The position numbers were made by a program, and so were the translations under genes. The notes below the pieces were generated by a model, which had not been told where the DNA came from, did not search any database, and saw only the letters and a list, made by a program, of their open reading frames with translations. From an uncultured virus (IMG/VR IMGVR_UViG_2684622556_000001) (lineage: Duplodnaviria > Heunggongvirae > Uroviricota > Caudoviricetes): DNA of 20,000 nt. The DNA lies in the IMG/VR virus record IMGVR_UViG_2684622556_000001; one strand, written 5' to 3'. Positions 3,191-20,000 of the stretch are shown here, piece by piece; position 1 is the stretch's first letter; every line of letters starts with the position of its first letter.

Positions 3191-3196
3191 GTCTCG

Positions 3197-4947: not shown

Positions 4948-4950
4948 CTA

Positions 4951-5268: not shown

Positions 5269-5313
5269 CCCTCAATTTTACGGCGCTACAGCAGTATCCA
5301 CGGGGTCTAACTG

Positions 5314-5499: not shown

Positions 5500-5572
5500 A
5501 CCCTCAATTATCCGGCGTTTCAACCGGAGTCGCGGTGTTTAGGCCCCGCGCGAGGAGAGCGCGCAGGGAACT

Positions 5573-5596
5573 AGCGCACTGTACCGTGCGCTTTTT
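5573..5596 (+). terminator. Possible intrinsic terminator hairpin
   Basis: AGCGCAC-tgtacc-GTGCGCT followed by a T run. Confidence 0.4.
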
Positions 5597-5680
5597 CAGA
5601 TGTATCCGGCAGAACGCCCAAATCCGGGCTTCTACCTGCGTGTTTCTTTTTCATCCACAACCTAATCGGGGAGGGTTCCC

Positions 5681-5923
5681 ATGGCTTTACATCCATCTGA
5701 TTGGGCGTGGATCACTATGGCTGCTGGGATCGTCGCCTACGAGATAGCTTGCCCACCGGGGGAGCTGCTATCGGACGCCACTACCCGCTACGGGCAGTCC
5801 CACATGTTCCTCAGCTCCGCCGTGATCGGAGTAGTGGCCGTACATCTGCTGCGCACCACCGGACTGCTTCGGTTCATCCCTGAACAGCTCGACCTAATCC
5901 ATTTGTTGGCTTCACTGAAATGA
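5681..5923 (+). CDS. Small phage membrane protein
   Basis: Two hydrophobic segments; GGGGAGG RBS. Confidence 0.7.
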   Translation: MALHPSDWAWITMAAGIVAYEIACPPGELLSDATTRYGQSHMFLSSAVIGVVAVHLLRTTGLLRFIPEQLDLIHLLASLK

Positions 5924-5985
5924 GAGGACACCGCTATGTGCAGAGTTGAGACTTGGAAGTGTGGCCTGCCGACTGGTACTCCGCG

Positions 5986-6321
5986 GTGAATGTGGCTGAG
6001 GTAGTCGGCTTGATCGCTGGCTCATCGCTCCTGTCCTCGCTTGGTGTCGCACTCCTTTCCCGCAAGAGCAACACCTTCTCCAAATTCACCGAAGCCTATG
6101 AAGCCCTCGCTGATCGGGTGACCAAGCTTGAGGAGAAGCTGGAAACCGTAGAGGGTGCGCTCGAGGTTGAGCGTGACCAGCACTCAAAGGCCCGCGATCT
6201 ACTGCGGATTGCGCTGCGCTACATCCGCGATGTTCTTTCCTGGGGGGTGGGAGACCGCGCCCATCCGCTACCTGAACCGCCCCCGGAGCTCTTTCGGCAC
6301 CTCGAGCAGCAAGACTCCTAG
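5986..6321 (+). CDS. Membrane-anchored coiled-coil phage protein
   Basis: N-terminal TM segment (VVGLIAGSSLLSSLGVALL) then heptad-rich YEALADRVTKLEEKLETVEGAL; start uncertain (5953 or 5986). Confidence 0.7.
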   Translation: MNVAEVVGLIAGSSLLSSLGVALLSRKSNTFSKFTEAYEALADRVTKLEEKLETVEGALEVERDQHSKARDLLRIALRYIRDVLSWGVGDRAHPLPEPPPELFRHLEQQDS

Positions 6322-6359
6322 ACCCCGCCGTTAGCGCTTACCGCCAATAGAATTGGGGT

Positions 6360-6644
6360 ATGGAGCTGACCGAGGGCAACATGCCGGACCCGCCCGAAGG
6401 GTGTGAGTGGGCGGTATCTACCATCCAGAACCCCGCAAGTATCTGCGTGAAGCTAAGGATGTCCAACGGCAACACTTACGAGGGCACATACACCGTGCCC
6501 ACACTGAACGACGAGGACTACAACCACAGAGCAGCCGCCTGGATGGCGGCCGAAATCCTGGAGTATCTACCCGGAACACTGCCCTACATAGGCAGTGGAA
6601 GACCTAAGCCCACACCTCCGCTGTCGGTCACCGGTACGACATAG
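6360..6644 (+). CDS. Hypothetical protein
   Basis: 94-aa ORF with TAGAAT 6 nt upstream of the ATG and a terminator downstream. Confidence 0.6.
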   Translation: MELTEGNMPDPPEGCEWAVSTIQNPASICVKLRMSNGNTYEGTYTVPTLNDEDYNHRAAAWMAAEILEYLPGTLPYIGSGRPKPTPPLSVTGTT

Positions 6645-6667
6645 AAGTCACCCCTCGCTTCACAGCC

Positions 6668-6718
6668 GCCCCCGGCTCCCGTGCTTCCCCCCAGCATGGT
6701 TGAGCCGGGGGCTTTTTT
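6668..6718 (+). terminator. Rho-independent terminator between the rightward genes and the convergent integrase
   Basis: GCCCCCGGCTC (6668-6678) pairs with GAGCCGGGGGC (6702-6712), followed by TTTTTT. Confidence 0.85.
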
Positions 6719-6742
6719 GCGTTTCCGGTGGTTGGTTTCGAA

Positions 6743-8002
6743 TCAGCTGCCTGGCACTAGCACTGCGAGGGCGTCCATCATCGTCGAGTTCCTTGCCTGA
6801 TCGGCGTGTGCGTAGATCCTCGTGACTTCCGGGGAGTTGTGTCCCAGGATCTCCATGCGAGTCTGCTCGTCCGCGCCCGCGGCGCGCAGCACTGTGGCGG
6901 TGGTGTGGCGGGTGCTATGCAGCGGCATGGTCTCGCCCTCCCCGATGATCCCGGCGTCCCGCAGGAGTTTGTGCCATGCCTGGTTATCGTCATTCGGAAT
7001 GACTGGTGCGCCGTCGGCGCGGTGGAACACAAGGTTATGCGGATTGGGTCCGCAATCCTTCTCGCGGAGCTGCGCCAGTGCCAGCCGTAGCGGCTCAATG
7101 ACGGGCACCCACCGCTTCCCCGCCTCTGATTTAGGTCGGGTTAGCGCCAGGGATGCATGTAGCGGTTCGTACTCAAACTTCACGGGCATATCCCATTTCG
7201 GGTCGGTGCAGTGGCCACCATTCTTGCGACCACACGGCCACTTCTCGCCGACCTTTTCACCGCAGCCGTGTGCGCGCTTGAGCTGCTGTAGCTGCCAAGT
7301 GATGTCCACCGCCCCGCCTTTGAGGTCCACTCGATCCCATGTCAGCCCAAGCGATTCACCTTGCCGAGTCCCCGTAAGGAAGAGGAATAACCACCGGGTG
7401 GCCTCCATCTGATTGCGGTGTTTGACCGCGTACGCGAGCAGCTTGTGCACGTCGCCGATAGATAGCGCCGTCCGATCACCCTTGGATACTTCGGGCGCAT
7501 CCACCGGGGCGGCGACGTTCCGTTTGATAAGACCCTCTGCGACCGCATCCTTGAGGGCCTTGTGCAACACCACGTGAGCCTTTTGCGTGCGCCGCGCACC
7601 CTTGCCGATGAGCGTGTGCATGCGCCGAACATCAGCCGGCGTCAGTTCGATCAGCTTCTTATGCCCTATGGCGCTGGCGATGTTGTTGATGGTGTGCCCG
7701 TAGTCGCGGTAGGTGGTGGGGCGGATACGTTCTCTATGGACGTTCGGAAGCCAGTAGTCGAGCCACTTGGCGACCGTCATAGTCCTGTCGAGGTTGAAGC
7801 CATCTGACGATTCGGCTTTCAATTCATCCAATCGGGCTACGAGGGTGCGGTAGTCCTTGCTGTAGACACGCTTCTGGCGCCGCTTCCCGGTCTCGTCGGG
7901 GGGCGCCTCGATCGAACCGACCCACATTCCATCGGCCCGCTGGAAGATGCTGCCCTCACCCTTGGCACGCGGCGGTCGCTTCTTCTTGGATGTGAATGCC
8001 AC
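6743..8002 (-). CDS. int: Prophage tyrosine integrase
   Basis: GEGSIFQRADGMWVG arm-binding N-terminus; catalytic TGTRQGE, HSTRH, LGH and IYAH; probable GTG start at 8002. Confidence 0.95.
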   Translation of the reverse strand: MAFTSKKKRPPRAKGEGSIFQRADGMWVGSIEAPPDETGKRRQKRVYSKDYRTLVARLDELKAESSDGFNLDRTMTVAKWLDYWLPNVHRERIRPTTYRDYGHTINNIASAIGHKKLIELTPADVRRMHTLIGKGARRTQKAHVVLHKALKDAVAEGLIKRNVAAPVDAPEVSKGDRTALSIGDVHKLLAYAVKHRNQMEATRWLFLFLTGTRQGESLGLTWDRVDLKGGAVDITWQLQQLKRAHGCGEKVGEKWPCGRKNGGHCTDPKWDMPVKFEYEPLHASLALTRPKSEAGKRWVPVIEPLRLALAQLREKDCGPNPHNLVFHRADGAPVIPNDDNQAWHKLLRDAGIIGEGETMPLHSTRHTTATVLRAAGADEQTRMEILGHNSPEVTRIYAHADQARNSTMMDALAVLVPGS

Positions 8003-8025
8003 CGTCCACCCTCTCAATGTATCCA

Positions 8026-8055
8026 ATACTGTACACATCTACGTGTACACAGTAT
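8026..8055. repeat. Candidate integrase arm-type or regulatory sites of the prophage
   Basis: TGTACACA twice (8030-8037, 8044-8051) within an imperfect palindrome ATACTGT...ACAGTAT, about 75 bp from the att core. Confidence 0.5.
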
Positions 8056-8129
8056 GTATGCAGTGGGTAATACAACCACCATCTACCTGGTGTCATGCGT
8101 TTATGAGCTGCTCTAATCATACCAAAGAT

Positions 8130-8178
8130 GCGGACTTAAAATCCGCACAGTGTCGGTTCGAGTCCGACTGGGGGCACC
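8130..8178 (+). other. att core: 3' half of tRNA-Leu(TAA), prophage right attachment site
   Basis: Anticodon arm GCGGA-CTTAAAA-TCCGC, T arm GTCGG-TTCGAGT-CCGAC, acceptor 3' strand TGGGGGC-A-CC; no 5' acceptor strand or D arm upstream. Confidence 0.9.
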
Positions 8179-8246
8179 GATATCGGTGCAGGTCAGGACG
8201 GTTTTCTGGTGGCCTGGCGACTGGTGTTCCTGCCGGGAGTGGTCAC

Positions 8247-8268
8247 CGCGTCCGTGTCGCGTCCGTGT
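8247..8268. repeat. Tandem 11-bp direct repeat, candidate arm-type sites of the second element
   Basis: CGCGTCCGTGT twice, exact and adjacent, about 70 bp right of the tRNA remnant. Confidence 0.6.
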
Positions 8269-8306
8269 ACGGATACAAACCGCCTGCGGCTGGTGTCGCC
8301 TTACGC

Positions 8307-9365
8307 TCAGACAGTGGTTGTCAGGATCGGCATCCTGCGAGCAATGCCAAGGTTGGAGGGCGCAGAGTTTTTGGTAATCCAATCCGAGGCGAGAGTAGTC
8401 ACCGTGGCCTTACCCACAAGCCGGGCAATCCGCACTTCGTGGGCAACCATGATCGCGGATGCAATCCGAACCATATCGAGTGCAACGCCACTTGACGCGA
8501 ATTCGGTAGTCGGGCCATCGGTGAACATTGCAGCTTCCTCGTAGTTCGCCTTGATGCGCAAACGGAAGAGGTAGTCCAGCATCGTGTACGGGCGGACGCC
8601 AGCTTCAACGGCTGCCCGTTCAGACGCCGTCAGATTAGAGGTACTTGAAAACCCTGGCTCCTTACGTGCTTTTTTGCCCTGCGTGAGCCGATCGGCCTCC
8701 TCCGTGTGCCATGCCTTCTTCTTCTCACGGGCTTTCTTCACGCGCGCTTCGTGCAGCTTCTTCTCCACTGCGTCATTGCGGGTGCTTCGAAGGGCAGTCG
8801 CCGCGATGTCCCAGCAATTCGTAGTACCGACTGTGGGCCAGCCGGTTACGCCCGCATCGATTGGCCTTCCTGGACCATTCGCATACGCTAAGGGGTTGGA
8901 CTTGCACCCTGGCATCGCGGCGAACGAAAACGGCTCTACAGCCGACTGGCGGTCCACCCACAACGTGCGCACCTGACTTTGCGTTTTCGGATGGTCAGTG
9001 GGTCGAGAGCGGCCCTCCGCGACGATCAGAGCTTGCGTTGCTGCATACCCGACGTAATAAGTCTGGACGCTGCCCCATGAGTTCGACAACCGAATGAGTT
9101 CGTCTTCTTCGAAATTGGAGGCGAGCCCCAGTAACAACTCTGTACCCCAGGCACGGTTCAGGCACTTCGCCATCTCGTCTATATCGACGGACGGGATGGC
9201 CTTCGGGACCGGAAATGCCGTGGCGACGCGTTGCGCCAACGTCTGTAGGACGGCTAGGTCTTTGTTGGGCCAATAAGTGAAACCCGCGAGTTGCGCGAAC
9301 GCCCGCAAATAATGCGCATGGGTTAGGAAGGACTTCTCCAGGGCATCGTTGACAGGGGTCGTCAC
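8307..9365 (-). CDS. HEPN-like protein with a large insertion
   Basis: VQTYYVGYAATQALIVAEG...TDH and YLFRLRIKANY resemble the two conserved HEPN segments; TAGCAT 6 nt before the GTG. Confidence 0.55.
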   Translation of the reverse strand: MTTPVNDALEKSFLTHAHYLRAFAQLAGFTYWPNKDLAVLQTLAQRVATAFPVPKAIPSVDIDEMAKCLNRAWGTELLLGLASNFEEDELIRLSNSWGSVQTYYVGYAATQALIVAEGRSRPTDHPKTQSQVRTLWVDRQSAVEPFSFAAMPGCKSNPLAYANGPGRPIDAGVTGWPTVGTTNCWDIAATALRSTRNDAVEKKLHEARVKKAREKKKAWHTEEADRLTQGKKARKEPGFSSTSNLTASERAAVEAGVRPYTMLDYLFRLRIKANYEEAAMFTDGPTTEFASSGVALDMVRIASAIMVAHEVRIARLVGKATVTTLASDWITKNSAPSNLGIARRMPILTTTV

Positions 9366-9426
9366 ACGGACATGCTATGAGGCTTGGCGCAACGTCGTCT
9401 GCACATTCAACTGGAGAGGCGGTGGC

Positions 9427-9579
9427 CTACCCTCCGGCGGATTTGTACGCGAGCCAGTCGGCTGCGGCCTGTACGTCGCTCGGTAACTTGCCTTCGATCT
9501 TCTGCACGCGCCTGGTTAGGGCTGCTAGGGCTTCCTGCAGCTCGGCCACCTGCGCGGCCAATTCGGTCTCGTTTGTCAT
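9427..9579 (-). CDS. Small coiled-coil protein (50 aa)
   Basis: LAAQVAELQEALAALTRRVQKIE heptads; TACCGT 7 nt before the ATG. Confidence 0.6.
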   Translation of the reverse strand: MTNETELAAQVAELQEALAALTRRVQKIEGKLPSDVQAAADWLAYKSAGG

Positions 9580-9741
9580 GGCGTCAACGGTATAGGCAGT
9601 CCCCAACACTCACGTCGCCTTTCGCAGCGGCAGCACCTGGGCCGCACCATAGGCAACGGTGACCACATTGCGTCCAAACCTTCGGAGCGGCCTGCACGTT
9701 TGTACACGAAACTGTCGCCCGTCCGCAGTACCGTCAGGTGC

Positions 9742-9981
9742 ATGGCTACAGTGATCTCTGGCGAGCACGTCGAGAGAAACCAGATCAACGACGATGTGGT
9801 CGTGGTCAGCGGCGGCGAGCTAACCTTGCGTGGCCAGATCAACGGAACGCTTACTGTCCGTTCGGGCGGCCAGGCCTACATCAACGGCCAAGTGGCCGAT
9901 CTTGTCATTGAAGACGGTGCGTCCGTTCAGCTGAACGGGATGGTGAACGGCACACTGACCGACCGCCGTGGGCAACCGTGA
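9742..9981 (+). CDS. Bactofilin-like beta-solenoid protein (79 aa)
   Basis: Repeats LRGQINGTLTV / INGQVADLVI / LNGMVNGTLT; TACCGT 7 nt before ATG 9742. Confidence 0.6.
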   Translation: MATVISGEHVERNQINDDVVVVSGGELTLRGQINGTLTVRSGGQAYINGQVADLVIEDGASVQLNGMVNGTLTDRRGQP

Positions 9982-10745
9982 TTCCGAGCTGGTTTCCCGA
10001 CGCGGACACATGGTCTGCCTGGGCGCAGATCGCCACCGTCGGCATTGCGGGTTGGGCGCTGATCTACGCGCGCGGACAGGTCAAGGAAGCTCGCGAGACA
10101 CGTGAACGCGTAGCGCAGCCGGATGTCGTGGTCTTCATTGAGCGCGACCCTCAGAACTGGCACTACATGGACCTGGTAATCAAGAACTTCGGCCAGACAC
10201 CGGCATACAACGTTCGTTTGACGTTGCCTCCGTTGGAGGTAGTGCCGTACGAAAACATGGCTACCGGAGAACAGGTCACCGAACTCTGGGTGCCAACCAA
10301 CATTGCCGTCTTAGCGCCAGGACAAGAGTGGAGAACTTCTTGGGACTCCGGTATCGAACGCGAAGAGTACAAAGGAGAACTCAAGAGTCAGTTCGGCGGA
10401 CGGGTCGACTTCGATGACGCGATGATCCCACCGAAGCGGAGCTATAACAATCCAATCTCGTTGGATGCCAACATGCTATGCAATTCACTGCGTGTGACGA
10501 CCGACAAGGCTAAGTCACCCGAAAAGGCCCTGTACAACATCGCAGAGACGCTCAAGGGTTACACAAAGCAGCACAGCGGTCTCTGGATTTACGGCGTTCC
10601 TGGCGAGGACGAACGCCAGTATCACGAGCAACGGGTTGCTGCCCTCAGAGCTAGAAGTCGACAGAACCTACGCGAATTGATGGGCAAGGGCGGACAACAA
10701 GACCAGCCCACGAACGCCGACCAAGAACCCGAGGGTAACCAATGA
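9978..10745 (+). CDS. Single-pass membrane protein of unknown function
   Basis: N-terminal TM (AWAQIATVGIAGWALIYA), then QPDVVV...LVIKNFGQTPAYNV beta-rich domain; GTGA overlap with the upstream gene. Confidence 0.75.
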   Translation: MIPSWFPDADTWSAWAQIATVGIAGWALIYARGQVKEARETRERVAQPDVVVFIERDPQNWHYMDLVIKNFGQTPAYNVRLTLPPLEVVPYENMATGEQVTELWVPTNIAVLAPGQEWRTSWDSGIEREEYKGELKSQFGGRVDFDDAMIPPKRSYNNPISLDANMLCNSLRVTTDKAKSPEKALYNIAETLKGYTKQHSGLWIYGVPGEDERQYHEQRVAALRARSRQNLRELMGKGGQQDQPTNADQEPEGNQ

Positions 10746-10751
10746 CGAGCC

Positions 10752-12125
10752 TTACGTTGCCTTTCGCTCTAGCGGCACAACGTTTCCCTTCGTGACGACC
10801 CCTCGCCCAACCTTCGGGGCAGCCTGTTCGTCTTCGTTGATGTAGTCCGCGTAGGTCGTCAGCGTGAGCACGAACGTGGAGTGTCCCAGCCACTTTGACA
10901 CCTGCATGTAGTGCTCGCCAGCGCTCAGGTTCATGGTGGCGAAGGTGTGGCGCAGGTCGTGGAAGCGGACAGCTCCAAGGCCAAGAGCCTTGCAGGCTGG
11001 CTGCAGGTAGTGCTCGTACAGGCTGGCCGCGCACACCGGCTTAGCCCAATCGAACACATGGCGATTGCGTCGGCCCGGGAACAGCGGTGCGATCCGGTAC
11101 TTGCCGGCAAACGGGTGAACCGTAGTTAGGTAGTCGCGTAGCTCATCGGCCAGCCACGGCGCTAGCGGCACTACGCGATCCGCGCTGGCATCGCTCTTGG
11201 GCGTGCCGTAGATCCACTCACGGTTCTTGCGCGATGCGGTGCGGACAACGCGAATGCTGCCCACCGTGCCCGGGATGTCCGACAGCGTCACGTCTTGGAC
11301 CTGAAGGCCCTGCAGCTCTGCGGCCCGAACACCGGTGTGGGCGGCGAACAGGATCGCCAGCGCGTAGACCTCGTTGCCCGGCCTGGTGTAGGTGCTGCCT
11401 TGTGGACCTGAAGAGTTGGCTGCGTCGCGACTGACAACCTGCTCGTTGGCGATCCAGTCGTGTACCGCCGCTACTTGGTTGGCGGTCAGTGGATGGTGCT
11501 TGAACGGCTGCGCGCTGCGCTTGGTGGTCCGGCGTCGGTTGGCGATGACCGGGTTGGCGGCAATGGCCTGATCATCCTGCGCCACATCCAGAATCCGCTT
11601 GAGCGTTCCGATGATGTGTTTCACCGTCTTCGGAGAGCGGGTAACCATATCGGGCAGGGTCGGGGAAGTGGGCTTGGCTCTGCCGTGACGGCGCTGGTGT
11701 GGCGATAGCAGCTGCGCGCGGAAACTGGCCACCTCAGCGGTGGTGATGGCCGCGACTGGCTTGCTACCGAACACTGGCGCAAGGTGCGTGCGGTAGATCT
11801 TCTCGTAGCCCTCGATGGTGGATTGGTCGATGGTGCCGACCAGCGAGTCAAGGTACTGACGGGCGTATGTGCCAAGCGGCGTGTTGGCCTTGGCCTTGGC
11901 CGCGCTGGGGTCCATGCCGTAGCCGGTGTCCAGCTGGTCCTCAACCTTGCGCAGATGCGCCTTGGCCTTGCGCTCGGTCGGAAAGGTCTCAGACGTCTCC
12001 TTAAACTCACCGGTTGGCGCGCCGAACTCGTCGCGCAGGGGCTCCAGCCAACGAACCTGGTACGAGACCGTCGGATTGCCGTACTTGTCGAGCCGCTTTG
12101 TCGTGCGCTTGCGGATGAATGCCAT
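10752..12125 (-). CDS. int: Tyrosine integrase of the second element
   Basis: SYQVRW arm-binding N-terminus; catalytic TGVRAAEL, HDLRH, LGH and TTYA. Confidence 0.95.
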   Translation of the reverse strand: MAFIRKRTTKRLDKYGNPTVSYQVRWLEPLRDEFGAPTGEFKETSETFPTERKAKAHLRKVEDQLDTGYGMDPSAAKAKANTPLGTYARQYLDSLVGTIDQSTIEGYEKIYRTHLAPVFGSKPVAAITTAEVASFRAQLLSPHQRRHGRAKPTSPTLPDMVTRSPKTVKHIIGTLKRILDVAQDDQAIAANPVIANRRRTTKRSAQPFKHHPLTANQVAAVHDWIANEQVVSRDAANSSGPQGSTYTRPGNEVYALAILFAAHTGVRAAELQGLQVQDVTLSDIPGTVGSIRVVRTASRKNREWIYGTPKSDASADRVVPLAPWLADELRDYLTTVHPFAGKYRIAPLFPGRRNRHVFDWAKPVCAASLYEHYLQPACKALGLGAVRFHDLRHTFATMNLSAGEHYMQVSKWLGHSTFVLTLTTYADYINEDEQAAPKVGRGVVTKGNVVPLERKAT

Positions 12126-12129
12126 AGTG

Positions 12130-12276
12130 TCACGAGTCCTTTGGTTCTTCGGTTGTCGTATCGGCCTCCAGCGCGCGATGGTGCGGGGTCAGTTTCCTAA
12201 CTGCCTCTAGCTCTTCGGGCGTTGCGAGGTATGCGCACTCGGGTTCGCCCGGGTCGCCGGGGTTAGCCGGGTTCAT
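12130..12276 (-). CDS. 48-aa ORF between the two recombinases (not in the ORF track)
   Basis: MNPANPGDPGEPECAYLATPEELEAVRKLTPHHRALEADTTTEEPKDS*; ATG overlaps the serine recombinase stop (TGATG) and the stop lies 4 nt before the integrase ATG. Confidence 0.5.
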   Translation of the reverse strand: MNPANPGDPGEPECAYLATPEELEAVRKLTPHHRALEADTTTEEPKDS

Positions 12277-12923
12277 CAGGCCACACCTTCGCGCTCAAGC
12301 ACACCGCGCACAGTGCTGTAACTCCATGTGCTGCTACGCGGTGCGGCGATGCCATCGGAGTCCAAAGCCTTAGCGATAGCCTTGGTTCCCTTTCCTGCGC
12401 TACGCAGTTCGACGATTCGGTCGATGGTTGCGCGTTCGATAGTGCTGGGCTTGCCGAGCTGCTTGCCGAGCTGTCGCGCTTTAATCAGCCCTTGCTTGGT
12501 GCGCTTGCTGATCAGCTCGCGCTCTTCCTCTGCAACTAGCAATCTCGCGTGTGCGGTGAGCTGTGAGACTGTGTCGCTATCGGTTCCGTCAAGGCCAACG
12601 ATTCGCCAACCTTCGGTCTTGGCGTCGGCTACCAGCTTCGCGCCGTCTGCCATGCTGCGACTGCTGCGGTCTAACGTGTTGACTACCAACACGTTCGCGA
12701 TGCCTGCCTGAATGGCTGTCACAGCGGCTATGCGTCCGTACAACTTATCGGTCTTGCGCCCACTCATCACGTCGACGTGCAGGCCGACCAGCTCCAAACT
12801 GTTGGCAGCGCAGTAGGAAAGCACCTGTTCCCGTTGTGCCTCTAGGCCGTAACCGCTCTCCGCTTGGCGCGTGGTCGAAACTCGTATGTAGCCAATTGCT
12901 TTGGGTGTTGGTGCTGTCGTCAT
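12276..12923 (-). CDS. Small serine recombinase (resolvase/invertase family) with C-terminal DNA-binding domain
   Basis: GYIRVST catalytic Ser, SG, LDRSSR, ERELISKRTKQGL; AAGGA RBS before ATG 12923. Confidence 0.9.
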   Translation of the reverse strand: MTTAPTPKAIGYIRVSTTRQAESGYGLEAQREQVLSYCAANSLELVGLHVDVMSGRKTDKLYGRIAAVTAIQAGIANVLVVNTLDRSSRSMADGAKLVADAKTEGWRIVGLDGTDSDTVSQLTAHARLLVAEEERELISKRTKQGLIKARQLGKQLGKPSTIERATIDRIVELRSAGKGTKAIAKALDSDGIAAPRSSTWSYSTVRGVLEREGVA

Positions 12924-13036
12924 CACTTCATCCTTCGGTGTTGGTTGTGGCGAGTGACGACCGTCACTCACCTCACCAAATACTTATAGCCGACCGCTCT
13001 ACCTCGAATTAATTGCTCGCACGGGCTATCTGGGTC

Positions 13037-14179
13037 TCAGTAGATGGATCGCCTGCGGTGCGCCGTGTAGCGCCTGTGTGGGCTTTCTGGATGGCGAACA
13101 GGCATCTCATGGCCGCGCTCATTGGTGACCCGAGCCAGATGCAACGTGCCTTCGTCCTCGCTCATGAGTTCACCGCTGGCGGGGTCTGGGATGGCCAGCT
13201 CGCTATATCTTGGGCGTTCGCGCCGTCTGTCCGCCGGGTGCGTGGGTCCAACACCGTCGCTTCGCGACGGCTGGCTTTCGTAGTGCCCGTTGCGTTCTGT
13301 CGGTGGGTCAAAAGACCGTTCTTCTGGTCTTGCTGCTGTGTCTTCTAGTCTTGTCGCCGGTTCTTGCCCGGCGGGCGTGGTCATCGAACTGCCACTAGGG
13401 GATTGGTTCGGGTACTCGTCAGAGGGTGAGCCTGTGCCGTAGTTCGGGCTGTAGTCGTTGTAGCCCCTGCGCGCTCTGCTCTGTTCTCGGGTCTCAGTCG
13501 TGATGCCCTCGAGAATCTGCTCATACGGCTTCGGCTCCATCGGGCCTAGCTCAACCTGAGTCGGCTTGGTGATGCCCGCACGGTCCAGAGCGCTGTTGGT
13601 CGCGCTCAGCTGCACAGTTTCGCTTTCGGCGGTTTCGCCAAGTCGTAGCAAGTTGGCTGCCATACGGTCAGCAGCGTTCTCCAGTCGGGCGCGAGCAGCT
13701 GCCTTGACGTGTGGGGCTGCACCGCCGTGAACTCTGCAGACTGTCGTGCCCTGCAGTGCGGCCTGCTTGCAGCGTTCGCCAGTCTTCTTATGTCCCTTGC
13801 ATCTACGGGATTGAGTCTGTGGGCTTTGCATTGCCCACCATTCGTCGCTCCACTTCGTAACCCCCAGGCTGTCATCGGGTTTGGAAGATGCGCGGGAGTC
13901 AGCGATCCGTGCCGGGAGAGAGATCCGGCGGCTCTCCGCCTCCTGTTCGTCCGAATCGGCCGTGCTGATAGGTCGAGGAGCGGATAGGTCGTACTGACGC
14001 ACCAACTCGGCCTGTGTAGGTGTCCGTATCGTTTCGCTCACGATCTCGACGTCGATGATTTCGGATTCGTCTTTGATCGAGTGGCCCAGGGCTTCCTCAA
14101 TTTCGGCGTCGCTCATGCCGGTGTCCCGAAGTGTCTGTATCGCCTTGCTCCGCTTTTTGCGAATCTCGATGCTACTCAT
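13037..14179 (-). CDS. HGGxSTG-type Zn-finger protein, terminase-small-subunit-like, with long disordered tail
   Basis: RCKGHKKTGERCKQAALQGTTVCRVHGG followed by AESETVQLSATNSALDRAG; GAAAGGA RBS. Confidence 0.6.
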   Translation of the reverse strand: MSSIEIRKKRSKAIQTLRDTGMSDAEIEEALGHSIKDESEIIDVEIVSETIRTPTQAELVRQYDLSAPRPISTADSDEQEAESRRISLPARIADSRASSKPDDSLGVTKWSDEWWAMQSPQTQSRRCKGHKKTGERCKQAALQGTTVCRVHGGAAPHVKAAARARLENAADRMAANLLRLGETAESETVQLSATNSALDRAGITKPTQVELGPMEPKPYEQILEGITTETREQSRARRGYNDYSPNYGTGSPSDEYPNQSPSGSSMTTPAGQEPATRLEDTAARPEERSFDPPTERNGHYESQPSRSDGVGPTHPADRRRERPRYSELAIPDPASGELMSEDEGTLHLARVTNERGHEMPVRHPESPHRRYTAHRRRSIY

Positions 14180-14214
14180 TGGTGTTCAGTCCTTTCGGTT
14201 GTAGCGGTCAGGAT

Positions 14215-14375
14215 TGGCGGGGGAGCGGGTGAAGTTTTGCCCGCCGGAAATCCTTACCGCCGCCTCGCTCGTGTAGTTCGATCTCTTAGGGTTCGAGGGC
14301 CTTACTTGATCTCTCTAAAATTTTCAGACGGCAAGGGAATTTTCGGCGGGGAAAGTTTCCCCCGCTCACCCGCCA
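14215..14375. repeat. Long imperfect inverted repeat, candidate replication origin
   Basis: 14215-14261 against the reverse complement of 14327-14375 matches at 39 of 49 columns by manual alignment; 65-bp spacer with GATCTCT twice and TAAAATTTT. Confidence 0.75.
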
Positions 14376-14387
14376 GCGCTGGCTGTT

Positions 14388-15971
14388 TCACTCCGTTCCC
14401 GCCTTCTCGTCGTCCTCGGCGGGCGGCACCAAAATCCATCGCTTAGTGCTGTCCTTGTTCTTCCCGCCGTCGTTCTCCACGCTCCACCCAGCAGCGCGCA
14501 GGCCGGGGGCATGCCGGGTCAACAGGTGCGTGACGGTCTTCGGGTGTTTGGGCCAGCCCTTCGGTGGCGGATCAACCCGATATGCTGCAGTTACAGCCTC
14601 TAGAACTTCCTTGCCCGTGTGCCCGTCCAGGCCCGTGTCGTAGCGCATCGCCACCAGTTGCGCGATGAATGGATCATCTTGCGCGGTCTCGGTCAGAGCT
14701 CGCTTTCGCCGAGACAGATACAGAGGCAGAGACTTCGGGTTGTGGTTGAACTCTTGGTCAAAACAGTTGAGGGTGAGCGCAAAGTCCGCCATGCGCGGCA
14801 GCTTGTCCGGTCGCGGGGTGTGCGGAAGCTTGTGATGTACCTTGGCTGCGATGCTCAGCAGCCCGCCGAGGATTCTCGGGTGGTCCTTGCTCCACTCGGC
14901 CGCAAGATCGCCTTCGGGGACTCGTTTGTCTTCCGGTATGTGTTGCAAGGTGAACGGGACAAGGCGGTCGGCCAGGTCACCGCGTATGTGTTCCATCGAG
15001 ATTCCGTTGAATACGATGGGCCGCCGGAACACGAACAACGCGAGGTCTTCATCGGTGTATAGAGCGCGCGTCTTCAGACCGCTGCCGGTTGCGGTGCGGC
15101 ACATGGCGTCTGACAGCCAGAACGGTAGGTCCGAGAGGTTGTCCAAAGCCACGACCCAGCTGGTGGCAGCTGTGAGAATCCAGTCCTGGAGGCTCTTCGG
15201 TGGTGAGTTGTGCGGGGTCACAGCTGGGTCAATCAGCCGAGCGAAATGCACTGTGCTGCTCGTTTTCGCCGTTCCCTGTTCACCGTCAAGGTGGACAATC
15301 GGCTTTGCGGTGTTGGGGTTGATGATGAAATCCACCGCCGTGCCGACGACTAGGGCTCGCTCGTCTCTGGCAACGGGCACGTAGCGAAACAGGCGACTGA
15401 CCTTGCCGCCGCGCGCTGGCTCCACCATGGCGGCGGTGTCCTGCGTGCGCCGAAACTTGTACGGGCACTCTGTGACCACCTTCCAGTCACCGCCGCTGAT
15501 CTTGATCACCCGGTTGGCGGCATCGGCCATGTCGAGATACACGGCCTCGCTGTCACCGGCTACACGTACGTACGTTTCGGCTGGCTCGGTGCGGAGGGCG
15601 ATGCCTTCAAGTGTCACCATGGCTTCTCCCAGCGCGCTCGCTGCCGCCACGATCTGGTTGCGCTCGTAGTAGTCCCATGCAAGGCGTTGCTGAAGCGCCA
15701 GTTGCTTGCTCTTTAGGGGAAAAGTGACGTGAGGTGCCTCTAGGTGATACGCGAACGTTTTGCCGTTCGGTGTTATGCCGAACCCGTACTGAGCCTCGGC
15801 CAGACGGACCAATTGTGTTGCAACGCTGGGCTTCTTCTTGGCTTCCGTCACATTCTTAGCCTGGGCTTCCAGCTCTTCTACCTCTGCAAGCAGTGCGTCC
15901 AAATCCACGGGCTCAGAGGATCGGCCGGCACTGCCGCCGCCGTGCGAGTCGTCGGCTATCCTGGCAGACAT
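14388..15971 (-). CDS. P-loop ATPase, putative SF3-like replicative helicase
   Basis: Walker A GEQGTAKT, Walker B VVALDN, IVFNGI sensor-like segment, DLADR; GAAAGGA RBS. Confidence 0.75.
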   Translation of the reverse strand: MSARIADDSHGGGSAGRSSEPVDLDALLAEVEELEAQAKNVTEAKKKPSVATQLVRLAEAQYGFGITPNGKTFAYHLEAPHVTFPLKSKQLALQQRLAWDYYERNQIVAAASALGEAMVTLEGIALRTEPAETYVRVAGDSEAVYLDMADAANRVIKISGGDWKVVTECPYKFRRTQDTAAMVEPARGGKVSRLFRYVPVARDERALVVGTAVDFIINPNTAKPIVHLDGEQGTAKTSSTVHFARLIDPAVTPHNSPPKSLQDWILTAATSWVVALDNLSDLPFWLSDAMCRTATGSGLKTRALYTDEDLALFVFRRPIVFNGISMEHIRGDLADRLVPFTLQHIPEDKRVPEGDLAAEWSKDHPRILGGLLSIAAKVHHKLPHTPRPDKLPRMADFALTLNCFDQEFNHNPKSLPLYLSRRKRALTETAQDDPFIAQLVAMRYDTGLDGHTGKEVLEAVTAAYRVDPPPKGWPKHPKTVTHLLTRHAPGLRAAGWSVENDGGKNKDSTKRWILVPPAEDDEKAGTE

Positions 15972-16102
15972 CAGTTTCCTTTCGGCGACTGTTGGCCCGT
16001 TGAGTCCCTACAACTTCCGGGCCTTCCGTCGCTTTGTTTGTGCGCTCCATCGCGCTACGCGCCTTTCCGGCGTTAAGTCGGGTGGTTGATCTTGTGGTCT
16101 GC

Positions 16103-16747
16103 CTAGGCCCAGTCGTCCTTTAGCGGGTTCGGTCGATTGATCGCCGTGTCCATGTCGTCTGGATCGCCCTGCTCGCACCATGCAACGGTGCTAACCGGAC
16201 GAGCCACCTGGTCCATGGGGCCACCAGCTCGCAACAGTTCACGGCACGACCCGCACAGCGCCACGACCACAATCACCAGGCCCCGCTGGTACGCCCAGAG
16301 CTTGGAGTGATCGCCTTTCTCGCAATGCCGTGAAAGCAGCGCGCCGCAACCGCGGATCGGTGAAGAGTCGCCTAGCATCCGGTGTTCGGCAACGCGCACG
16401 TAGTGGCTTAGTTGGGCGACCTCGTTGATCTCCAGCGGAACCACCTGGCACACCACCTCAAACCGCGCGGCATCTTCGGCGTGCACAAGACCGGTGAGAA
16501 ATGAGGTGTCCCTGGGGGTTTCTCCTAGTACGTCTAGCCTGCGCTGGAATGCGTTCCACGTTTCCGCGCCGAATGCACGCTCTAGATGATTCGGGTTGGC
16601 TAGGAGCTCATCGGTTTCGCACAGACTGTCGGCTATCGCCTCCGCCCGCGCGTTGATATCAGACCAGTCGTCGGGGTCTATTGGCGGTGCTCCGGCGACG
16701 GCCAACAGCTGGTTTGGCCGATGCCAAGGCCTGAGCTTGCCGCTCAC
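16103..16747 (-). CDS. Hypothetical protein with C-terminal Cys cluster
   Basis: GTGA overlap with the xis-like gene; C..HC...CGSC motif. Confidence 0.65.
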   Translation of the reverse strand: MSGKLRPWHRPNQLLAVAGAPPIDPDDWSDINARAEAIADSLCETDELLANPNHLERAFGAETWNAFQRRLDVLGETPRDTSFLTGLVHAEDAARFEVVCQVVPLEINEVAQLSHYVRVAEHRMLGDSSPIRGCGALLSRHCEKGDHSKLWAYQRGLVIVVVALCGSCRELLRAGGPMDQVARPVSTVAWCEQGDPDDMDTAINRPNPLKDDWA

Positions 16748-16974
16748 AGTGACTCCACCAGCTTGTCAAGATCGGCAACACGCCAGTACGCCTTCTTGCC
16801 GATCACCTTGGGTTTGGGCAGCTGGCCGGTCTTGTAGGCGTAGCCCTTCAGAGTCTCGAAGGTGACCGCCTCAAACCCTTTGTTTCGCAGGTAGGCAACG
16901 GCCTTTGCCTTGCTTACCCATTCGGTTTGCCCCGCTGGGGTGTCGCCCTGGGGCGGATGGGTGGATATAGACAT
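16744..16974 (-). CDS. Excisionase/AlpA-like winged-helix DNA-binding protein
   Basis: WVSKAKAVAYL...TLKGYAYKTGQLPKPKVIGKKAYWRVADLDKLV; GGAG RBS before ATG 16974. Confidence 0.75.
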   Translation of the reverse strand: MSISTHPPQGDTPAGQTEWVSKAKAVAYLRNKGFEAVTFETLKGYAYKTGQLPKPKVIGKKAYWRVADLDKLVESL

Positions 16975-17845
16975 CTTGGTCGTCTCCGTTTCCTGTTGTG
17001 TCCGTTGATGATTCGCGGTTTCAAGGTCCGCGTTAACTACCATAGCCGACGCGAGCGCCGCTGTCCGACACCGATTTACGCTCAGATCGGCCCTCCTAGC
17101 TGCATCGATGCCATACAGGGGCTGCAAAGGCGGGGTGTGCCAGTTCCGCCTGAATCGACCCGCTGTCGTTTGCTGGCGCGATAGGCCTCGAAACCCTATG
17201 GGGCCAGATTGAGTGGGCGGCATCGAACTAACCGACTCCCGTGGAGCCGGTTGGCCCTGCGCGGGCATCCCTCAGCCGTGCGGGCGGTTCGGGCCAGCTG
17301 CAGACCCTCGACGCGCGGGGCTCGACCGGCTCTGGTTGCCTCAGCCATGCAAGCGGCCACCCCGACTGTCGCGTGGGACGCAGCCGACCCGCCTCGACGG
17401 GTGTGCCGTGCCCCGTTAGGGGTGCGGCCCTACTGCCGTGACATACGCACCCAAACGCAAACAGACGTCCACGTGCTCACCGTGACGCTGCCTGTCTTGC
17501 GCACCCACCCGGCGGGCAAGCGGATGTGACTGTGCAGTCTTCCCGGACCGGGTGTATTGCGAGCTGGCGCTACTTGGTTGGTGGGCCGTCACTGCCTGCA
17601 TGACTCAACTTTGAGTATCGAAAGCCTTAGTGTGACAACTGGCATGGCGCGAAGTGCACGAGCGGCCGGAACGTTCTGGCGGCATAATGTGTCCTAACCC
17701 CTTGCCGGGCACGGCGGTTGGCCTAGTCTTGCAACAAGATGCGGCAGCGCAGTCGGCACCTAGCGCGGGCGCAGGATGGATTCAGTCCCGGTACTGCGCC
17801 CGCGAGCCTGGTGTTTCCCAAGACACTTGGCCCAAAGGCGACAAA

Positions 17846-19024
17846 ATGACTTCCACACATAATTTCTCGCGAGCTGATCACTCGCACGAAGCGTTCCCTA
17901 TTCCTCCTTTCGGCTTTGAGGGCGGCTACGGCACCGAGGGTGACGCTCTCCCTCGGGTCACCGAAACTGCTGACGGCACGGACCTCAACCGCGTCTGGGA
18001 CGACTTCCAACGAACACTGGAGGAGTGGAACAACAGCGCATCGAGCCTGGCGGGATTGCTTTCATACTGGCACACCAACGTTGCCGACTCGATCCCTAAG
18101 GGGTTCAACCGCAACACCTTCGAGAGGGCCTCGGAATTCGGTGAGCCCGAAGCGCTACGGCCCGGTAGCTATGAACTGGTCGGCTACGACTTCGAGGACT
18201 ACGACCGGGCAACACGCTTCACCTGGAAAGCACTGCGAGACATGGATGCCCGCCAGGTTCGCGCAAGCCACAACGAGGCGCTCAACGAAGACAGTCGCTT
18301 GGTCACCAGCACTATCTTGCGGAGGCTGTTCGACCCTGTCGCCACGACCAACGAAAGTGCTACGCCGGTCTATGGCCTGTACAACGCTGACGGCATGGAG
18401 CCCGCGCCTTTTGCCGGCCAAACCTTCAACGGAACTCACAGCCACTACATCGCCTCCGGTTCCGCCACCATCGACAGCGGCGACGTGGAATCCACCATCA
18501 AGCTGGTGAAGGAACACGGTTTCGGTCTGCCCGAGTCGGGGCAAACCTTGCTGCTGCTGTGCCACCCCGCAGAGGCCGAGGTTGTCATGTCCTGGGCCAA
18601 GGGTACGGAGACCGCCACTGACGTTTTCGCCAAATACGATGCAATCCCTAGCGTTGGCGCTCCTGCATTCGAGATCAGCGGACAAATCGTCGGTCGGCAG
18701 GCACCCGACAACTTCAACGGTGTTCCGATCATCGGGAGCTACGGACCTGTCCTCGTGGTGGAGTCGTATTTCGTACCGCTGCACTACTTCGCGGTCGTCG
18801 CCACCAGTGGGCCCAACAGCCCTAACAACGCTATCGGGGTTCGCGAGCACATCAACTCGGCTTACCGCGGCCTGCGCCAGATTCCGGGCAACGTCAGTGG
18901 CTATCCGCTGCAAGACAGCTTCTACACGCGCGGTTTCGGCGTCGGTACGCGCTGGCGCGGTGCGGCTGCGGTATGCCAGGTCACGGCCAGCTCCAACTAC
19001 ACGGCACCGACGATTACCGCCTAA
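17846..19024 (+). CDS. Major capsid protein-like (probable HK97 fold)
   Basis: Resembles actinophage capsid proteins by recall (TEGD...TADGTDLN..W, FERASEFGEP, GYDFEDYD.ATRFTWK, RGFGVGTRWRGAAAV); 392 aa from ATG 17846 with AAAGG upstream. Confidence 0.7.
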   Translation: MTSTHNFSRADHSHEAFPIPPFGFEGGYGTEGDALPRVTETADGTDLNRVWDDFQRTLEEWNNSASSLAGLLSYWHTNVADSIPKGFNRNTFERASEFGEPEALRPGSYELVGYDFEDYDRATRFTWKALRDMDARQVRASHNEALNEDSRLVTSTILRRLFDPVATTNESATPVYGLYNADGMEPAPFAGQTFNGTHSHYIASGSATIDSGDVESTIKLVKEHGFGLPESGQTLLLLCHPAEAEVVMSWAKGTETATDVFAKYDAIPSVGAPAFEISGQIVGRQAPDNFNGVPIIGSYGPVLVVESYFVPLHYFAVVATSGPNSPNNAIGVREHINSAYRGLRQIPGNVSGYPLQDSFYTRGFGVGTRWRGAAAVCQVTASSNYTAPTITA

Positions 19025-19045
19025 TGCGGCTAGGAGATAGGCACC

Positions 19046-19255
19046 ATGCGCAGATCAACGGGAGTGAGTCCTAATCCGAAACCCGCAGACCCTGACCGGC
19101 TGGATCCCATCGGCGCGGCCTACCGCCGAGCCGACACGGAAGGAAGCGAGTACAGCTGGGGTGCGGGCCTGGCTCCATCGGGGCTTGAGAACGGAGGTCC
19201 GGCCGAGGGCGGCAGATACCACACTCGTGTACCCGGTCGGAAGATTCGGGATTAG
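19046..19255 (+). CDS. Small hypothetical protein downstream of the capsid-like gene
   Basis: AGGAG RBS; starts 21 nt after the capsid-like stop, same strand; Gly/Pro-rich. Confidence 0.55.
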   Translation: MRRSTGVSPNPKPADPDRLDPIGAAYRRADTEGSEYSWGAGLAPSGLENGGPAEGGRYHTRVPGRKIRD

Positions 19256-19337
19256 CTCGCGCCTTTCGAGGACATTCACCCGCCGGAGACCGGCGAAAGA
19301 ATCACAAGACAACAGATCAAGACTCAAACGACTGAGG

Positions 19338-20000
19338 CTACTGCTGATTGCCGGTCTGTTTACGGGACTGCGCGGCCTGTTGAGCCTGCGAGATAACCGC
19401 CGGTGATTGATAGACATCGTTCAAGATCTCACCCATCAGCTGTATCACTAGCTTTGACTCCTCAGCACTGATCGGGTTCACGAAGTCTCCGTGCGCCATC
19501 TCATTGCCCAGTTCCCGGACACCGTGGGCAGCATCCTTGATGACTGCCCGAATCAATCCGGCGGTTGCGAGCGCCTCGATCTTGTCGTAAAGCCTGCCCT
19601 TGGTAATGCCTTTGTCCTTGGCCGTGGCCTCGATCACGGCCCGGGCAAGCATGATCGCGCCGCGATAGTGCTCGTTGCTGTGACATTCGTAGGCTTCCGT
19701 GGCGGCTTCGCCAATGTGATTGGGAACATGCGGGTAATCCGTCGTCTCGGTTATCGAAGGGCGCCAGCGGAGCTCATCGCCGCGCACGGACTCTACGAAC
19801 TGATAAAGCGGGACGGACAGTCCTCCTGGATTTCGGAAGGGGAATAATGCAACTGAGATGCCACGGCAAATCGAGCACTCGTAGGCGGCAGTTGCTAGTT
19901 GTTCCGGCCTAACACCTGCTTCTGGGCCGACAAACCGTGCTTCTCCGACAAGGTTGTGTCCGGTGTTGGCTTTGCACAGCCAACAAACGTGGTTTGGCAT
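19338..20000 (-). CDS. DUF4145 (HEPN-related) protein with N-terminal Zn ribbon; start may lie at or beyond the window edge
   Basis: CWLC...CSIC; YRGAIMLARAVIE...LYDKIEAL...VRELGNEMAH. Confidence 0.8.
   Translation of the reverse strand: MPNHVCWLCKANTGHNLVGEARFVGPEAGVRPEQLATAAYECSICRGISVALFPFRNPGGLSVPLYQFVESVRGDELRWRPSITETTDYPHVPNHIGEAATEAYECHSNEHYRGAIMLARAVIEATAKDKGITKGRLYDKIEALATAGLIRAVIKDAAHGVRELGNEMAHGDFVNPISAEESKLVIQLMGEILNDVYQSPAVISQAQQAAQSRKQTGNQQ

Follow-up and report, generated by a model that had tools for sequence, protein, structure and literature searches.

The DNA analysed here, referred to as the window, comprises the last 20 kb (20,000 nucleotides) of the 49,164-bp IMG/VR record IMGVR_UViG_2684622556_000001, an uncultured virus that is classed there as a provirus. 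The right-hand part of the window is occupied by an element, referred to below as the island, that spans positions 8183-20000 plus about 0.3 kb, which amounts to approximately 12.18 kb between two attachment (att) copies; the left att lies in the window and the right att was taken from a contig of DNA run X7. This island is probably a helper-dependent integrative phage satellite of the Mycobacterium abscessus group. It encodes a tyrosine integrase, a small serine recombinase, a protein resembling small terminases (TerS), a helicase module, a helix-turn-helix (HTH) protein and, in the divergent direction, a major capsid protein with one small partner. The open reading frames (ORFs) of the window were screened with Pfam, PHROGs, NCBIfam and PADLOC. 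Portal, large terminase (TerL), protease, scaffold, connector, tail and lysis genes were sought in the island with the first three of these collections and none was found, and neither was a repressor; we infer that the island depends on a helper phage. An earlier note, made from the DNA sequence alone, had proposed a satellite that provides a capsid gene and a TerS-like gene itself, lacks genes for portal, TerL, protease and tails, and has no visible repressor. The gene content that it described was confirmed, and a satellite of this kind is still the best reading of the island.

Integration site and family of related islands

The 49,164-bp record is trimmed at gene boundaries (it opens with ATG and closes with the reverse complement of ATG), and for this reason other data were needed to place the right boundary. 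The left boundary lies in the window. A partial tRNA-Leu(TAA), which reaches from the anticodon stem to the 3' end, forms the att core at positions 8130-8182 on the plus strand and is identical at 53 of 53 positions to the tRNA-Leu of a related island (L009). An Rfam scan of the window gave a borderline tRNA at 8110-8176 (30 bits) and no other RNA, and ARAGORN called no tRNA in the window. The sequence immediately to the right of 8130-8182 aligns with the left arm of the island in genome G167, and the records of the prophages prophiGD02-2 and prophiGD90-1 stop at window position 8177. On these two grounds, positions 8130-8182 are read as both the right att of a MabA2-type prophage and the left att of the island, the two elements lying in tandem at one tRNA gene. 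The island sits at tRNA-Leu(TAA), i.e. attB-15, which is listed in the supplement of Abad et al. 2023 (PMC10654092) as Mab_t5019, tRNA-Leu(TAA), with the core CTTAAAAT.

The right boundary was found in a 14,833-nt contig of DNA run X7, which covers window positions 6500-20000 and extends 341 nt further. X7 may itself be the sample from which the window came, and this does no harm to its use for placing a boundary. The final 30 nt of this contig repeat the att core at 8133-8162 with 2 differences and in the same orientation. The right att would accordingly be at about 20312-20341 in extrapolated window numbering, and the island length of about 12.18 kb follows from this repeat. In the same run the 45-nt att core unitig has a depth of 130 compared with 51.7 in the flanks, which fits about three core copies, and another contig begins inside the att core and runs into unrelated sequence. 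Four runs compared with a stretch that stopped short of the right end showed no joints, but an excision joint would have escaped notice in that stretch. The distance between the att copies and the prophage end in window positions 1-8177 agree with the earlier description of an element of about 12 kb beside a prophage. The att repeat lies approximately 310-340 nt past the window end. The island therefore ends about 340 nt past the window, instead of continuing there into the portal, TerL or tail genes that would have spoken for an ordinary prophage. All of the sampled words of the island (100%) were present in 18 DNA runs from 6 studies with three organism labels, all 18 of which are flagged as possible sources of the window. 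A near-identical copy was absent from phage records, IMG/VR, the one-genome-per-species contigs and 401 Mycobacteriaceae genomes. A tRNA-Met att site, suggested by the relatives L002, L014 and G303, was rejected for this island, as the window contains no tRNA-Met fragment and G167 points to tRNA-Leu.

The capsid gene was used as the anchor for a scan of one genome per species, which yielded 17 loci out of 54 candidate stretches. The integrase, the small serine recombinase, the TerS-like gene and the capsid gene occur in one block in 10 of the 17 loci (L001-L005, L009 and L011-L014). The other seven comprise three short contigs (L006, L007, L010), a locus with only the HTH gene, the capsid gene and its partner (L008), two deletion remnants (L015, L017) and a locus with a distant capsid (L016; 33%). 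The core was found in Mycobacterium, Gordonia, Tsukamurella and Lolliginicoccus. Its order is integrase, small serine recombinase, TerS-like gene, swappable replicase, HTH gene and divergent capsid gene with partner, with variable cargo at both ends. The replicase slot is filled among the relatives by DUF3631, PrimPol with AAA_25, PrimPol with DUF3987, or D5_N with DUF5906. Seven relatives were annotated (147 ORFs by Pfam; 96 ORFs of the element parts by PHROGs), and their only head and packaging matches were the capsid, found in 7 of 7, and the TerS-like protein. In these seven relatives Pfam and PHROGs detected none of the genes for portal, TerL, protease, scaffold, connectors, tail or lysis, and their flanks are ordinary chromosomal genes such as PE/PPE genes, two-component systems and transporters.

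The closest relative found is in genome G167, in which the integrase is 78.5%, the serine recombinase 83%, a 255-aa cargo ORF 63% and the capsid 52% identical. There, the genes come in the same order after an intact tRNA-Leu(TAA), whose 3' part recurs 12.2 kb on as a 46-nt repeat (87%). Repeats of tRNA sequence also bound L009 (tRNA-Leu, 44 bp, 11.1 kb) and L003 (tRNA-Gly, 55 bp, 10.2 kb), and the island in G058 (contig C6, joined coordinates 13005-26683; integrase 67%; 13.6 kb) is enclosed by 44 nt from the 5' part of tRNA-Leu(TAA), repeated perfectly at its two ends. From gene order and repeats, these islands are read as a conserved family in Mycobacteriales, with lengths of 10-14 kb and integration at tRNA genes. 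Other genomes were searched for synteny, as the earlier note had advised; the block recurs in G167 and G058 in addition to the 10 loci, and the satellite reading was not refuted. In G058 the intact tRNA is on the integrase side, in the orientation opposite to G167. A crossover in the anticodon loop, with the element carrying either half of the tRNA, would explain the difference between the two.

A sample of 401 Mycobacteriaceae genomes was then used for both head genes, with thresholds of E <= 1e-20 for the capsid and E <= 1e-8 for the TerS-like profile. The capsid was found in 45 and the TerS-like profile in 34 of these genomes. A TerS-like gene is 0.7-7.8 kb away at 30 of 52 capsid places (54 rows with the second pieces of two split genes merged), and a capsid gene is within 10 kb at 30 of 39 TerS-like places; several of the misses are at contig ends. 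Internal stops are absent from 51 of the 54 capsid places. These results bear on the alternative that the island is a decayed prophage remnant in which the capsid gene was kept by chance. Degraded copies do occur, namely L015, L017, a 3.3-kb remnant in G303 and a capsid pseudogene with 2 stops in G001, and the window record itself is called a provirus. However, the compact order, the intact frames and the att repeats recur in all four genera named above, the great majority of capsid places are free of stops, the island capsids form one old clade separate from phage capsids, and an island-specific hallmark gene is present (see below). In addition, no DNA similarity beyond the att core was found in 50,697 phage records. 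A decayed prophage is therefore considered very improbable.

Several further loci depart from the common layout. The capsids in G116 (C28), G329 (C24), G063 (C69) and G309 (C8) are more distant (37-41% identical) and have a TerS-like gene about 0.73 kb away; these islands are possibly a sub-family with another layout. In L003 a second, degenerate island (12427-15836), with integrase fragments and a small-partner gene, follows the complete one in tandem and has the tRNA-Gly repeat, in a third copy, as its boundary. In L015 (9900-10730) a deletion has fused the integrase gene's 3' end directly onto the 3' third of the capsid gene, and the small-partner gene comes next.

Head genes, packaging and the proposed helper

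The capsid gene encodes 392 aa at 17846-19024 on the plus strand, in an ORF that is open from 17654 (456 aa). The likely start is the ATG at 17846, where the alignments of the relatives begin and which has AAAGG 8-12 nt upstream. The protein matches phrog_3990 (2.7e-103) and the solved capsids 8saj (E 2.5e-80; residues 89-453 of the 456-aa ORF on residues 29-394 of the 403-aa chain) and 8giu (E 9.8e-73), and it has no Pfam match at all. It is 37-45% identical to capsids in 162 phage records (Mycobacterium, Gordonia, Microbacterium and others; 56-72-kb genomes). The phages with related capsids are siphoviruses of 56-72 kb, which we take to belong mostly to lytic clusters. By these matches the gene is assigned to a genuine phage major capsid protein of the HK97-fold actinophage type. 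The start at 17846 and the 69-aa gene downstream bear out the divergent 392-aa capsid gene with one small partner that the earlier note had described. A structure model made from 13 sequences reached a pLDDT (predicted local distance difference test) of 44.6, which is too poor to use. In a quick maximum likelihood tree of 32 capsids, 14 island capsids group together in a single clade (SH-aLRT 100, stem 0.44) from which 10 phage capsids are separate; the capsid of L016 grouped with distant viral contigs and was used in the outgroup.

The small capsid partner is a 69-aa protein at 19046-19255 on the plus strand, with the motif SE[FY]SWGxGLxPxG..PPxxGGxY. A hidden Markov model (HMM) of nine members located the partner immediately after the capsid gene at 16 of the 17 loci, as well as in G167 and G058. 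With the same HMM neither 12 phage or viral loci nor the adjacent prophage gave a match, and a tblastn search with the L009 partner against 50,697 phage records gave no significant match (best E 0.2). This distribution suggests that the partner is an island-specific hallmark gene.

The third gene of this kind encodes the TerS-like protein of 380 aa at 13037-14179 on the minus strand, which carries an HGGxSTG motif (NCBIfam HGG_STG). A profile of 11 family members matches the solved small terminases 7joq (6.5e-5) and 6w7t (4.7e-4). Two PHROG families that are both named small terminase were matched, phrog_10899 by 9 and phrog_2538 by 6 of the 11 members. Homologs of the core of the protein are encoded by the first gene in the phages Golden, Lucky3, SirVictor, Pajaza, Big4, Cece, Zooman and Mimi and by the last gene in Megan and D_HF5_3, and the homolog in Cece is annotated as small terminase. 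The model of the protein (pLDDT 59) has an N-terminal helical domain, a Cys3-His HGG zinc-ribbon, a helical hairpin and a disordered tail. Fold searches with this model gave a best VIA-align Z of 6.1 on a generic helical hairpin and, in BFVD, matches to uncharacterised phage proteins. The HGGxSTG protein is probably a small terminase, and the TerS-like gene claimed in the earlier note is upheld by the profile matches, the PHROG families and the gene position in phages.

A single HK97-family shell gene, closely linked to the gene of a small protein that has a conserved short motif, and no portal gene, could also describe a self-sufficient compartment, either encapsulin-like or a tailless particle, in which the small downstream protein is the cargo or shell partner. 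The shell protein, however, is 37-45% identical over nearly its full length to the capsids of real tailed phages. The shell gene also travels with the TerS-like gene, which points to DNA packaging and not to a metabolic compartment. A compartment of this type is consequently the most improbable of the explanations considered here.

As a satellite, the island would work in several steps, which are drawn by analogy with phage-inducible chromosomal islands (PICIs). A helper phage would switch on the leftward operon, perhaps via the AlpA/Xis-like HTH protein, which is proposed as the switch because no repressor was seen. The integrase would excise the island and the helicase would replicate it from an origin at an inverted repeat. 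The TerS-like protein would steer the large terminase of the helper to the island DNA. The capsid protein and its small partner would build or remodel heads on the helper portal, and these heads would receive helper tails.

The adjacent prophage was suggested in the earlier note as a possible helper. Window positions 1-8177 are the right end of a prophage that is 94.5% identical to prophiGD02-2 and prophiGD90-1, and contain a tyrosine integrase (6743-8038), lysin A, holin, lysin B and exonuclease genes. The rest of the 49-kb record contains HNH, TerL (phrog_9), portal, scaffold, capsid (phrog_267), adaptor, tail terminator, major tail, chaperone and tape measure genes. Table 1 of Dedrick et al. 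2021 (PMC8092301) assigns prophiGD02-2 to cluster MabA2, with attB-15 as its integration site. Prophage and island are in tandem at one tRNA-Leu(TAA) site, the prophage could provide TerL, portal, scaffold, connectors and tail, and hijacking based on TerS requires only a compatible large terminase. On the other hand, the capsids belong to different families (phrog_267 in the prophage, phrog_3990 in the island), no protein of the island has a homolog in the prophage part of the 49-kb record, and in G167, the closest relative, the island is at an intact tRNA-Leu with no prophage between. The tandem placement can also be a hot-spot effect, because PICIs and prophages generally share attB sites, as noted by Abad et al. 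2023 (PMC10654092). The suggestion is therefore not supported by these comparisons, and the adjacent MabA2-type prophage is an improbable helper. In RNA runs X19 and X20, one contig matches only window positions 6500-6723, with 8 differences, and then diverges. The MabA1 prophage records lose similarity at 6723 as well; the strain in these runs probably has a different MabA prophage, since the point of divergence is the same.

A more specific form of the satellite reading is put forward tentatively and has appreciably less than an even chance of being correct. The islands would be a distinct and old "capsid-swapping" satellite class of Mycobacteriales that preys on large, mostly lytic siphoviruses with phrog_3990-type capsids, and not on resident prophages, by assembling small heads on the helper portal out of the capsid protein that it encodes itself. 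Such a class would have kept only the capsid, the small partner and the small terminase from a phage head module, with the serine recombinase beside the integrase. The strategy would be placed between those of PICIs and capsid-forming PICIs, and is not known from any satellite.

Transcript data were available as assembled contigs from two RNA-seq runs of one study, which hold 22-23% of the sampled island words. The RNA contigs cover window positions 8142-9588 and 9771-11116 (both at depth 29-89), 17653-17970, 18123-18284 and 18821-20000 and beyond. At the left end, a 352-aa cargo ORF is under RNA contigs at depth 77-89, a 51-aa ORF is inside the contig 8142-9588, a 93-aa ORF is partly covered (9771-10161) and the 255-aa ORF is covered. 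At the right end, the DUF4145 gene is covered at depth 12-15 (contigs on 19123-20000). Coverage of the capsid gene and its partner is patchy and shallow (17653-17970, 18123-18284 and 18821-19332; depth 3-9). No RNA contigs of the two runs lie on 11117-17652, which includes the 5' part of the integrase gene and the serine recombinase, TerS-like, helicase, Cys-rich and HTH genes. This empty stretch speaks against DNA carry-over, and the pattern fits a quiescent island with expressed cargo at its ends.

The same pattern could be expected of an anti-phage island that does not spread as a satellite. In such an island the capsid protein and the small partner would act as decoys that poison the head assembly of incoming phages with related capsids, the TerS-like protein would misdirect the terminase of these phages, and the island itself would move rarely or by another route. 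In favor of this explanation, RNA contigs lie on the end cargo and to some extent on the capsid gene and none lies on the core replication operon, the cargo of the relatives includes restriction-like, KAP NTPase, nuclease/SUKH and DUF4145 genes, the small partner is absent from the phages searched, and the scaffold or minor-capsid genes that accompany the capsid gene in phages are missing from the island. However, the set for integration, excision, replication and TerS function is conserved with the capsid gene across four bacterial families, which suits a packaged element and exceeds the needs of a defence gene. Interference and transfer are also compatible, and known satellites do both. An anti-phage island without transfer is thus thought unlikely, although it is the strongest of the competing explanations.

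Several points weigh against the helper-dependent satellite. First, no characterised satellite is known to build heads of its own capsid on a helper portal without its own portal or scaffold. Secondly, the island has no scaffold or minor-capsid gene before the capsid gene, unlike the ten phages examined, in which the capsid gene follows a gene in the scaffold or minor-capsid position. Eight of the phage records annotate a minor capsid protein, and the gene preceding the capsid gene is called "hypothetical" in Papyrus and Indlulamithi and "gp20" in Barnyard. Third, no helper was identified, and the adjacent prophage is unsupported in this role. In most island-bearing genomes the capsid of the island itself is the one match of this family, and because a second capsid is missing there, prophages with a matching capsid are usually not resident in the same genome. 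Fourth, the TerS assignment comes from modest profile scores and gene position, with indecisive fold searches, and the HTH_17 matches of the HTH gene are sub-threshold (E 0.081 in the island, 0.019 in L002 and 0.015 in L003). Lastly, the RNA contigs are from an assembly in which rare species are dropped and no strand is shown.

Comparison with described satellites

The island resembles classical PICIs, including the Staphylococcus aureus pathogenicity islands (SaPIs), in its size (10-15 kb in PICIs), att repeats, integrase, own TerS-like gene and cargo, and possibly in its predicted replicase with an origin-like repeat. It may resemble the AlpA-regulated PICIs of Gram-negative bacteria, as the leftward operon is headed by a putative AlpA/Xis-like HTH gene and no Stl-type repressor is visible. 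Compared with classical PICIs, the island adds a capsid of its own, an extra serine recombinase of small size, and cargo in the interval from att to the integrase, and its capsid gene occupies the place of the divergent regulator in PICIs. The earlier note had listed an extra resolvase, a capsid gene in the repressor place and no protease as departures from the PICI layout, and all of these hold for the island. Capsid-forming PICIs (cfPICIs) are similar in having their own capsid and small terminase and in taking other virion parts from a helper, which for the island is by inference. In cfPICIs a full head module is present, with capsid, protease, portal, head-tail connectors and TerS, and often HNH, whereas the island encodes the capsid and the TerS-like protein only.

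The elements phiRv1 and phiRv2 of M. tuberculosis are similar to the island in being mycobacterial elements of about 10 kb with an integrase, excisionase, primase, terminase-like gene and capsid. They have a prohead protease beside the capsid gene, and none was found in the island or its relatives. The assignment of the island capsid to phrog_3990 with no Pfam match was noted as a further difference. In de Sousa et al. 2023 (PMC10085698), phiRv1 and phiRv2 are classed with PICIs, and genetically distinct putative satellites are reported in M. abscessus; Abad et al. 2023 likewise place the phiRv elements among PICI-like satellites. The EPIPs of Mycolicibacterium aichiense (Qian et al., bioRxiv Dec 2025, PMC12822802) were reported as the first satellites of Mycobacteriaceae isolated as particles. 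They are about 11 kb in size, were found as free particles and, like the island, encode TerS, a capsid and an HTH protein. EPIPs also have a serine integrase, head-tail adaptor, stopper, scaffold and tape measure, none of which was found in the island, whereas the integrase of the island is a tyrosine recombinase, accompanied by a serine recombinase of small size and a replicase.

The closest precedent is provided by Abad et al. 2023 (PMC10654092), whose section on candidate PICIs describes regions of Mycobacterium genomes outside prophages that contain an integrase gene together with one for a major capsid protein. According to that paper, candidate PICIs with tyrosine integrases are at tRNA genes shared with prophages and some contain helicases and terminase genes, one is at attB-15 in M. 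abscessus GD01, SatelliteFinder recovers 62% and missed the four examples shown, and induction of the candidates is not shown. The island has both an integrase with a capsid gene and a tRNA site shared with a prophage, and it is likely, though unproven, that it is the attB-15 candidate PICI of GD01. The "new type" of satellite proposed in the earlier note is therefore not supported, as Abad et al. had already defined Mycobacterium candidate PICIs, one of them at attB-15. The note had also held that a match to a defined satellite family would count against its proposal. Here the outcome is divided, as the kind of element was already flagged by Abad et al. and the definitions of cfPICIs, phiRv elements and EPIPs do not apply to the island.

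The section of Abad et al. on candidate PICIs does not describe the serine recombinase, the HGGxSTG TerS-like protein, the small partner, the single capsid clade or the spread to Gordonia, Tsukamurella and Lolliginicoccus. In the literature search, the conserved serine recombinase, the HGGxSTG protein and the capsid partner were not described as hallmarks of a family, in a search that was not aimed at the partner motif, and nothing was found for "HGGxSTG". The new parts of this analysis are the definition at the level of the family and the hallmark small gene.

These results are of interest for several reasons. First, infections with M. abscessus respond poorly to treatment and phages are being tried as therapy, and satellites that hijack or block phages, with their defence cargo, could shape the match between phage and strain. 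Secondly, the family is a defined, compact and widespread test case for asking if mycobacterial candidate PICIs are genuine satellites and which helpers serve them. Third, the minimal head module of capsid, partner and TerS-like protein would be a new form of helper exploitation, if the island builds its own heads. Lastly, searches for such islands can be anchored on the conserved gene set; SatelliteFinder, according to Abad et al., did not pick up the four examples that they show.

Recombination, replication and cargo genes

The tyrosine integrase gene is at 10752-12125 on the minus strand (Pfam Phage_integrase 5.7e-12 with SAM_3; phrog_1 1.2e-50), 2.6 kb from the left att, with cargo between the two. 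In addition to the homolog in G167, integrases with 63-67% identity are in L002, L014 and G058. The small serine recombinase (12276-12971, minus strand; Resolvase 7.9e-25; phrog_125 DNA invertase 8.8e-32) has 231 aa, the size of a resolvase or invertase, and carries the catalytic motif YIRVST. It is located between the integrase and the TerS-like gene in 10 of the 17 loci. Multimer resolution is a guess at its role. An inversion of the capsid module by this enzyme was also considered, as the module is reversed in L001, L004 and L005, and was rejected, as no flanking inverted repeats are in the window. The two recombinases noted earlier were thus verified by Pfam and PHROGs, whereas the small ORF reported between them was not, the gap at 12126-12275 having no ORF of its own of at least 50 aa.

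The P-loop ATPase/helicase module (14388-15971, minus strand; 527 aa; Walker A GEQGTAKT) probably starts at 15908 (506 aa), as a 100% identical protein of 506 aa is on 56 contigs. It has 554 homologs at E <= 0.001, many of which are fused to Prim-Pol, Toprim or DUF3854, and is predicted to be a replicative helicase module, in line with the helicase-like gene of the earlier note. No primase domain was found in the island. An imperfect inverted repeat is directly downstream of this gene, in the 208-bp spacer before the TerS-like gene, with arms of 52 nt at 14200-14251 and 14339-14390 (75% complementary); it contains two GCGGG..TTT..CCCGC palindromes around an AT-rich centre. The repeat, which had been noted before, is a candidate replication origin or packaging site, the origin role being suggested by its position alone.

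Upstream of the helicase gene is a Cys-rich protein of 214 aa (16103-16747, minus strand) with no Pfam or PHROG match, which agrees with the Cys protein seen earlier. The same slot in the relatives holds Cys/His-rich yet unrelated proteins. The Cys-rich ORF was considered as the part of a split primase and rejected, since it has no similarity to the primase parts of Prim-Pol-fused helicase homologs. The HTH gene (16744-17268, minus strand) is the first of the leftward operon. Its true start is probably internal, at about 17043, and its last ~77 aa are Xis/AlpA-like; this C-terminus is kept in L002, L007, L014, G167 and G058. The xis-like gene of the earlier note is accordingly retained in part, as an HTH-like C-terminus is seen and the HTH_17 matches of three members stay below threshold (E 0.015-0.08). 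The ~0.6-0.8 kb between the HTH and capsid genes contain no convincing gene, and a promoter scan of 16900-17900 gave 0 sites. A perfect 11-nt inverted repeat with a 19-nt spacer is at 17764-17804, approximately 40 nt upstream of the capsid start codon, and could be an operator or attenuator.

The cargo at the left end begins with the 352-aa ORF (8307-9365, minus strand), which has no Pfam, PHROG, NCBIfam or PADLOC match and only unnamed clusters in the Atlas, and is not conserved in the G167 relative. It is followed by an uncertain 51-aa ORF (9425-9580, minus strand; no Pfam match), possibly a coiled coil as read from the sequence, and by a 93-aa ORF (9700-9981, plus strand) with a GC3 of 0.75 and sub-threshold Pfam matches only, which overlaps the start of the next gene. 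The latter encodes the 255-aa protein (9978-10745, plus strand) with an N-terminal hydrophobic helix, which matches phrog_9607 (2.1e-16) and has no named relatives; its 63% identical homolog in G167 also adjoins the integrase. At the right end is a DUF4145 gene (19338-20000, minus strand; DUF4145 8e-18; phrog_1305), the start codon of which is at the last base of the record. It matches PADLOC PD-T7-4 at 6.7e-4, and a defence or DNA-binding function is possible. The defence-like cargo that had been assigned to both flanks is therefore backed on the right by this weak PD-T7-4 match, and not on the left, where no function could be assigned to the ORFs of 352 aa and 255 aa.

The 3.3-kb remnant in G303 (contig C1, joined coordinates 19033-22388), between 35-nt tRNA-Met repeats, contains only the small capsid partner and a DUF4145 gene that is 78% identical. 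Islands at different tRNAs thus have end cargo in common. Other relatives carry a non-specific endonuclease with a SUKH_6 partner (L001, 7735-9317), an Mrr-type restriction enzyme with a NOV_C protein (L009, 11419-13526) and a KAP NTPase fragment (L014, 20-355), all of which are defence-like or toxin-immunity-like cargo.

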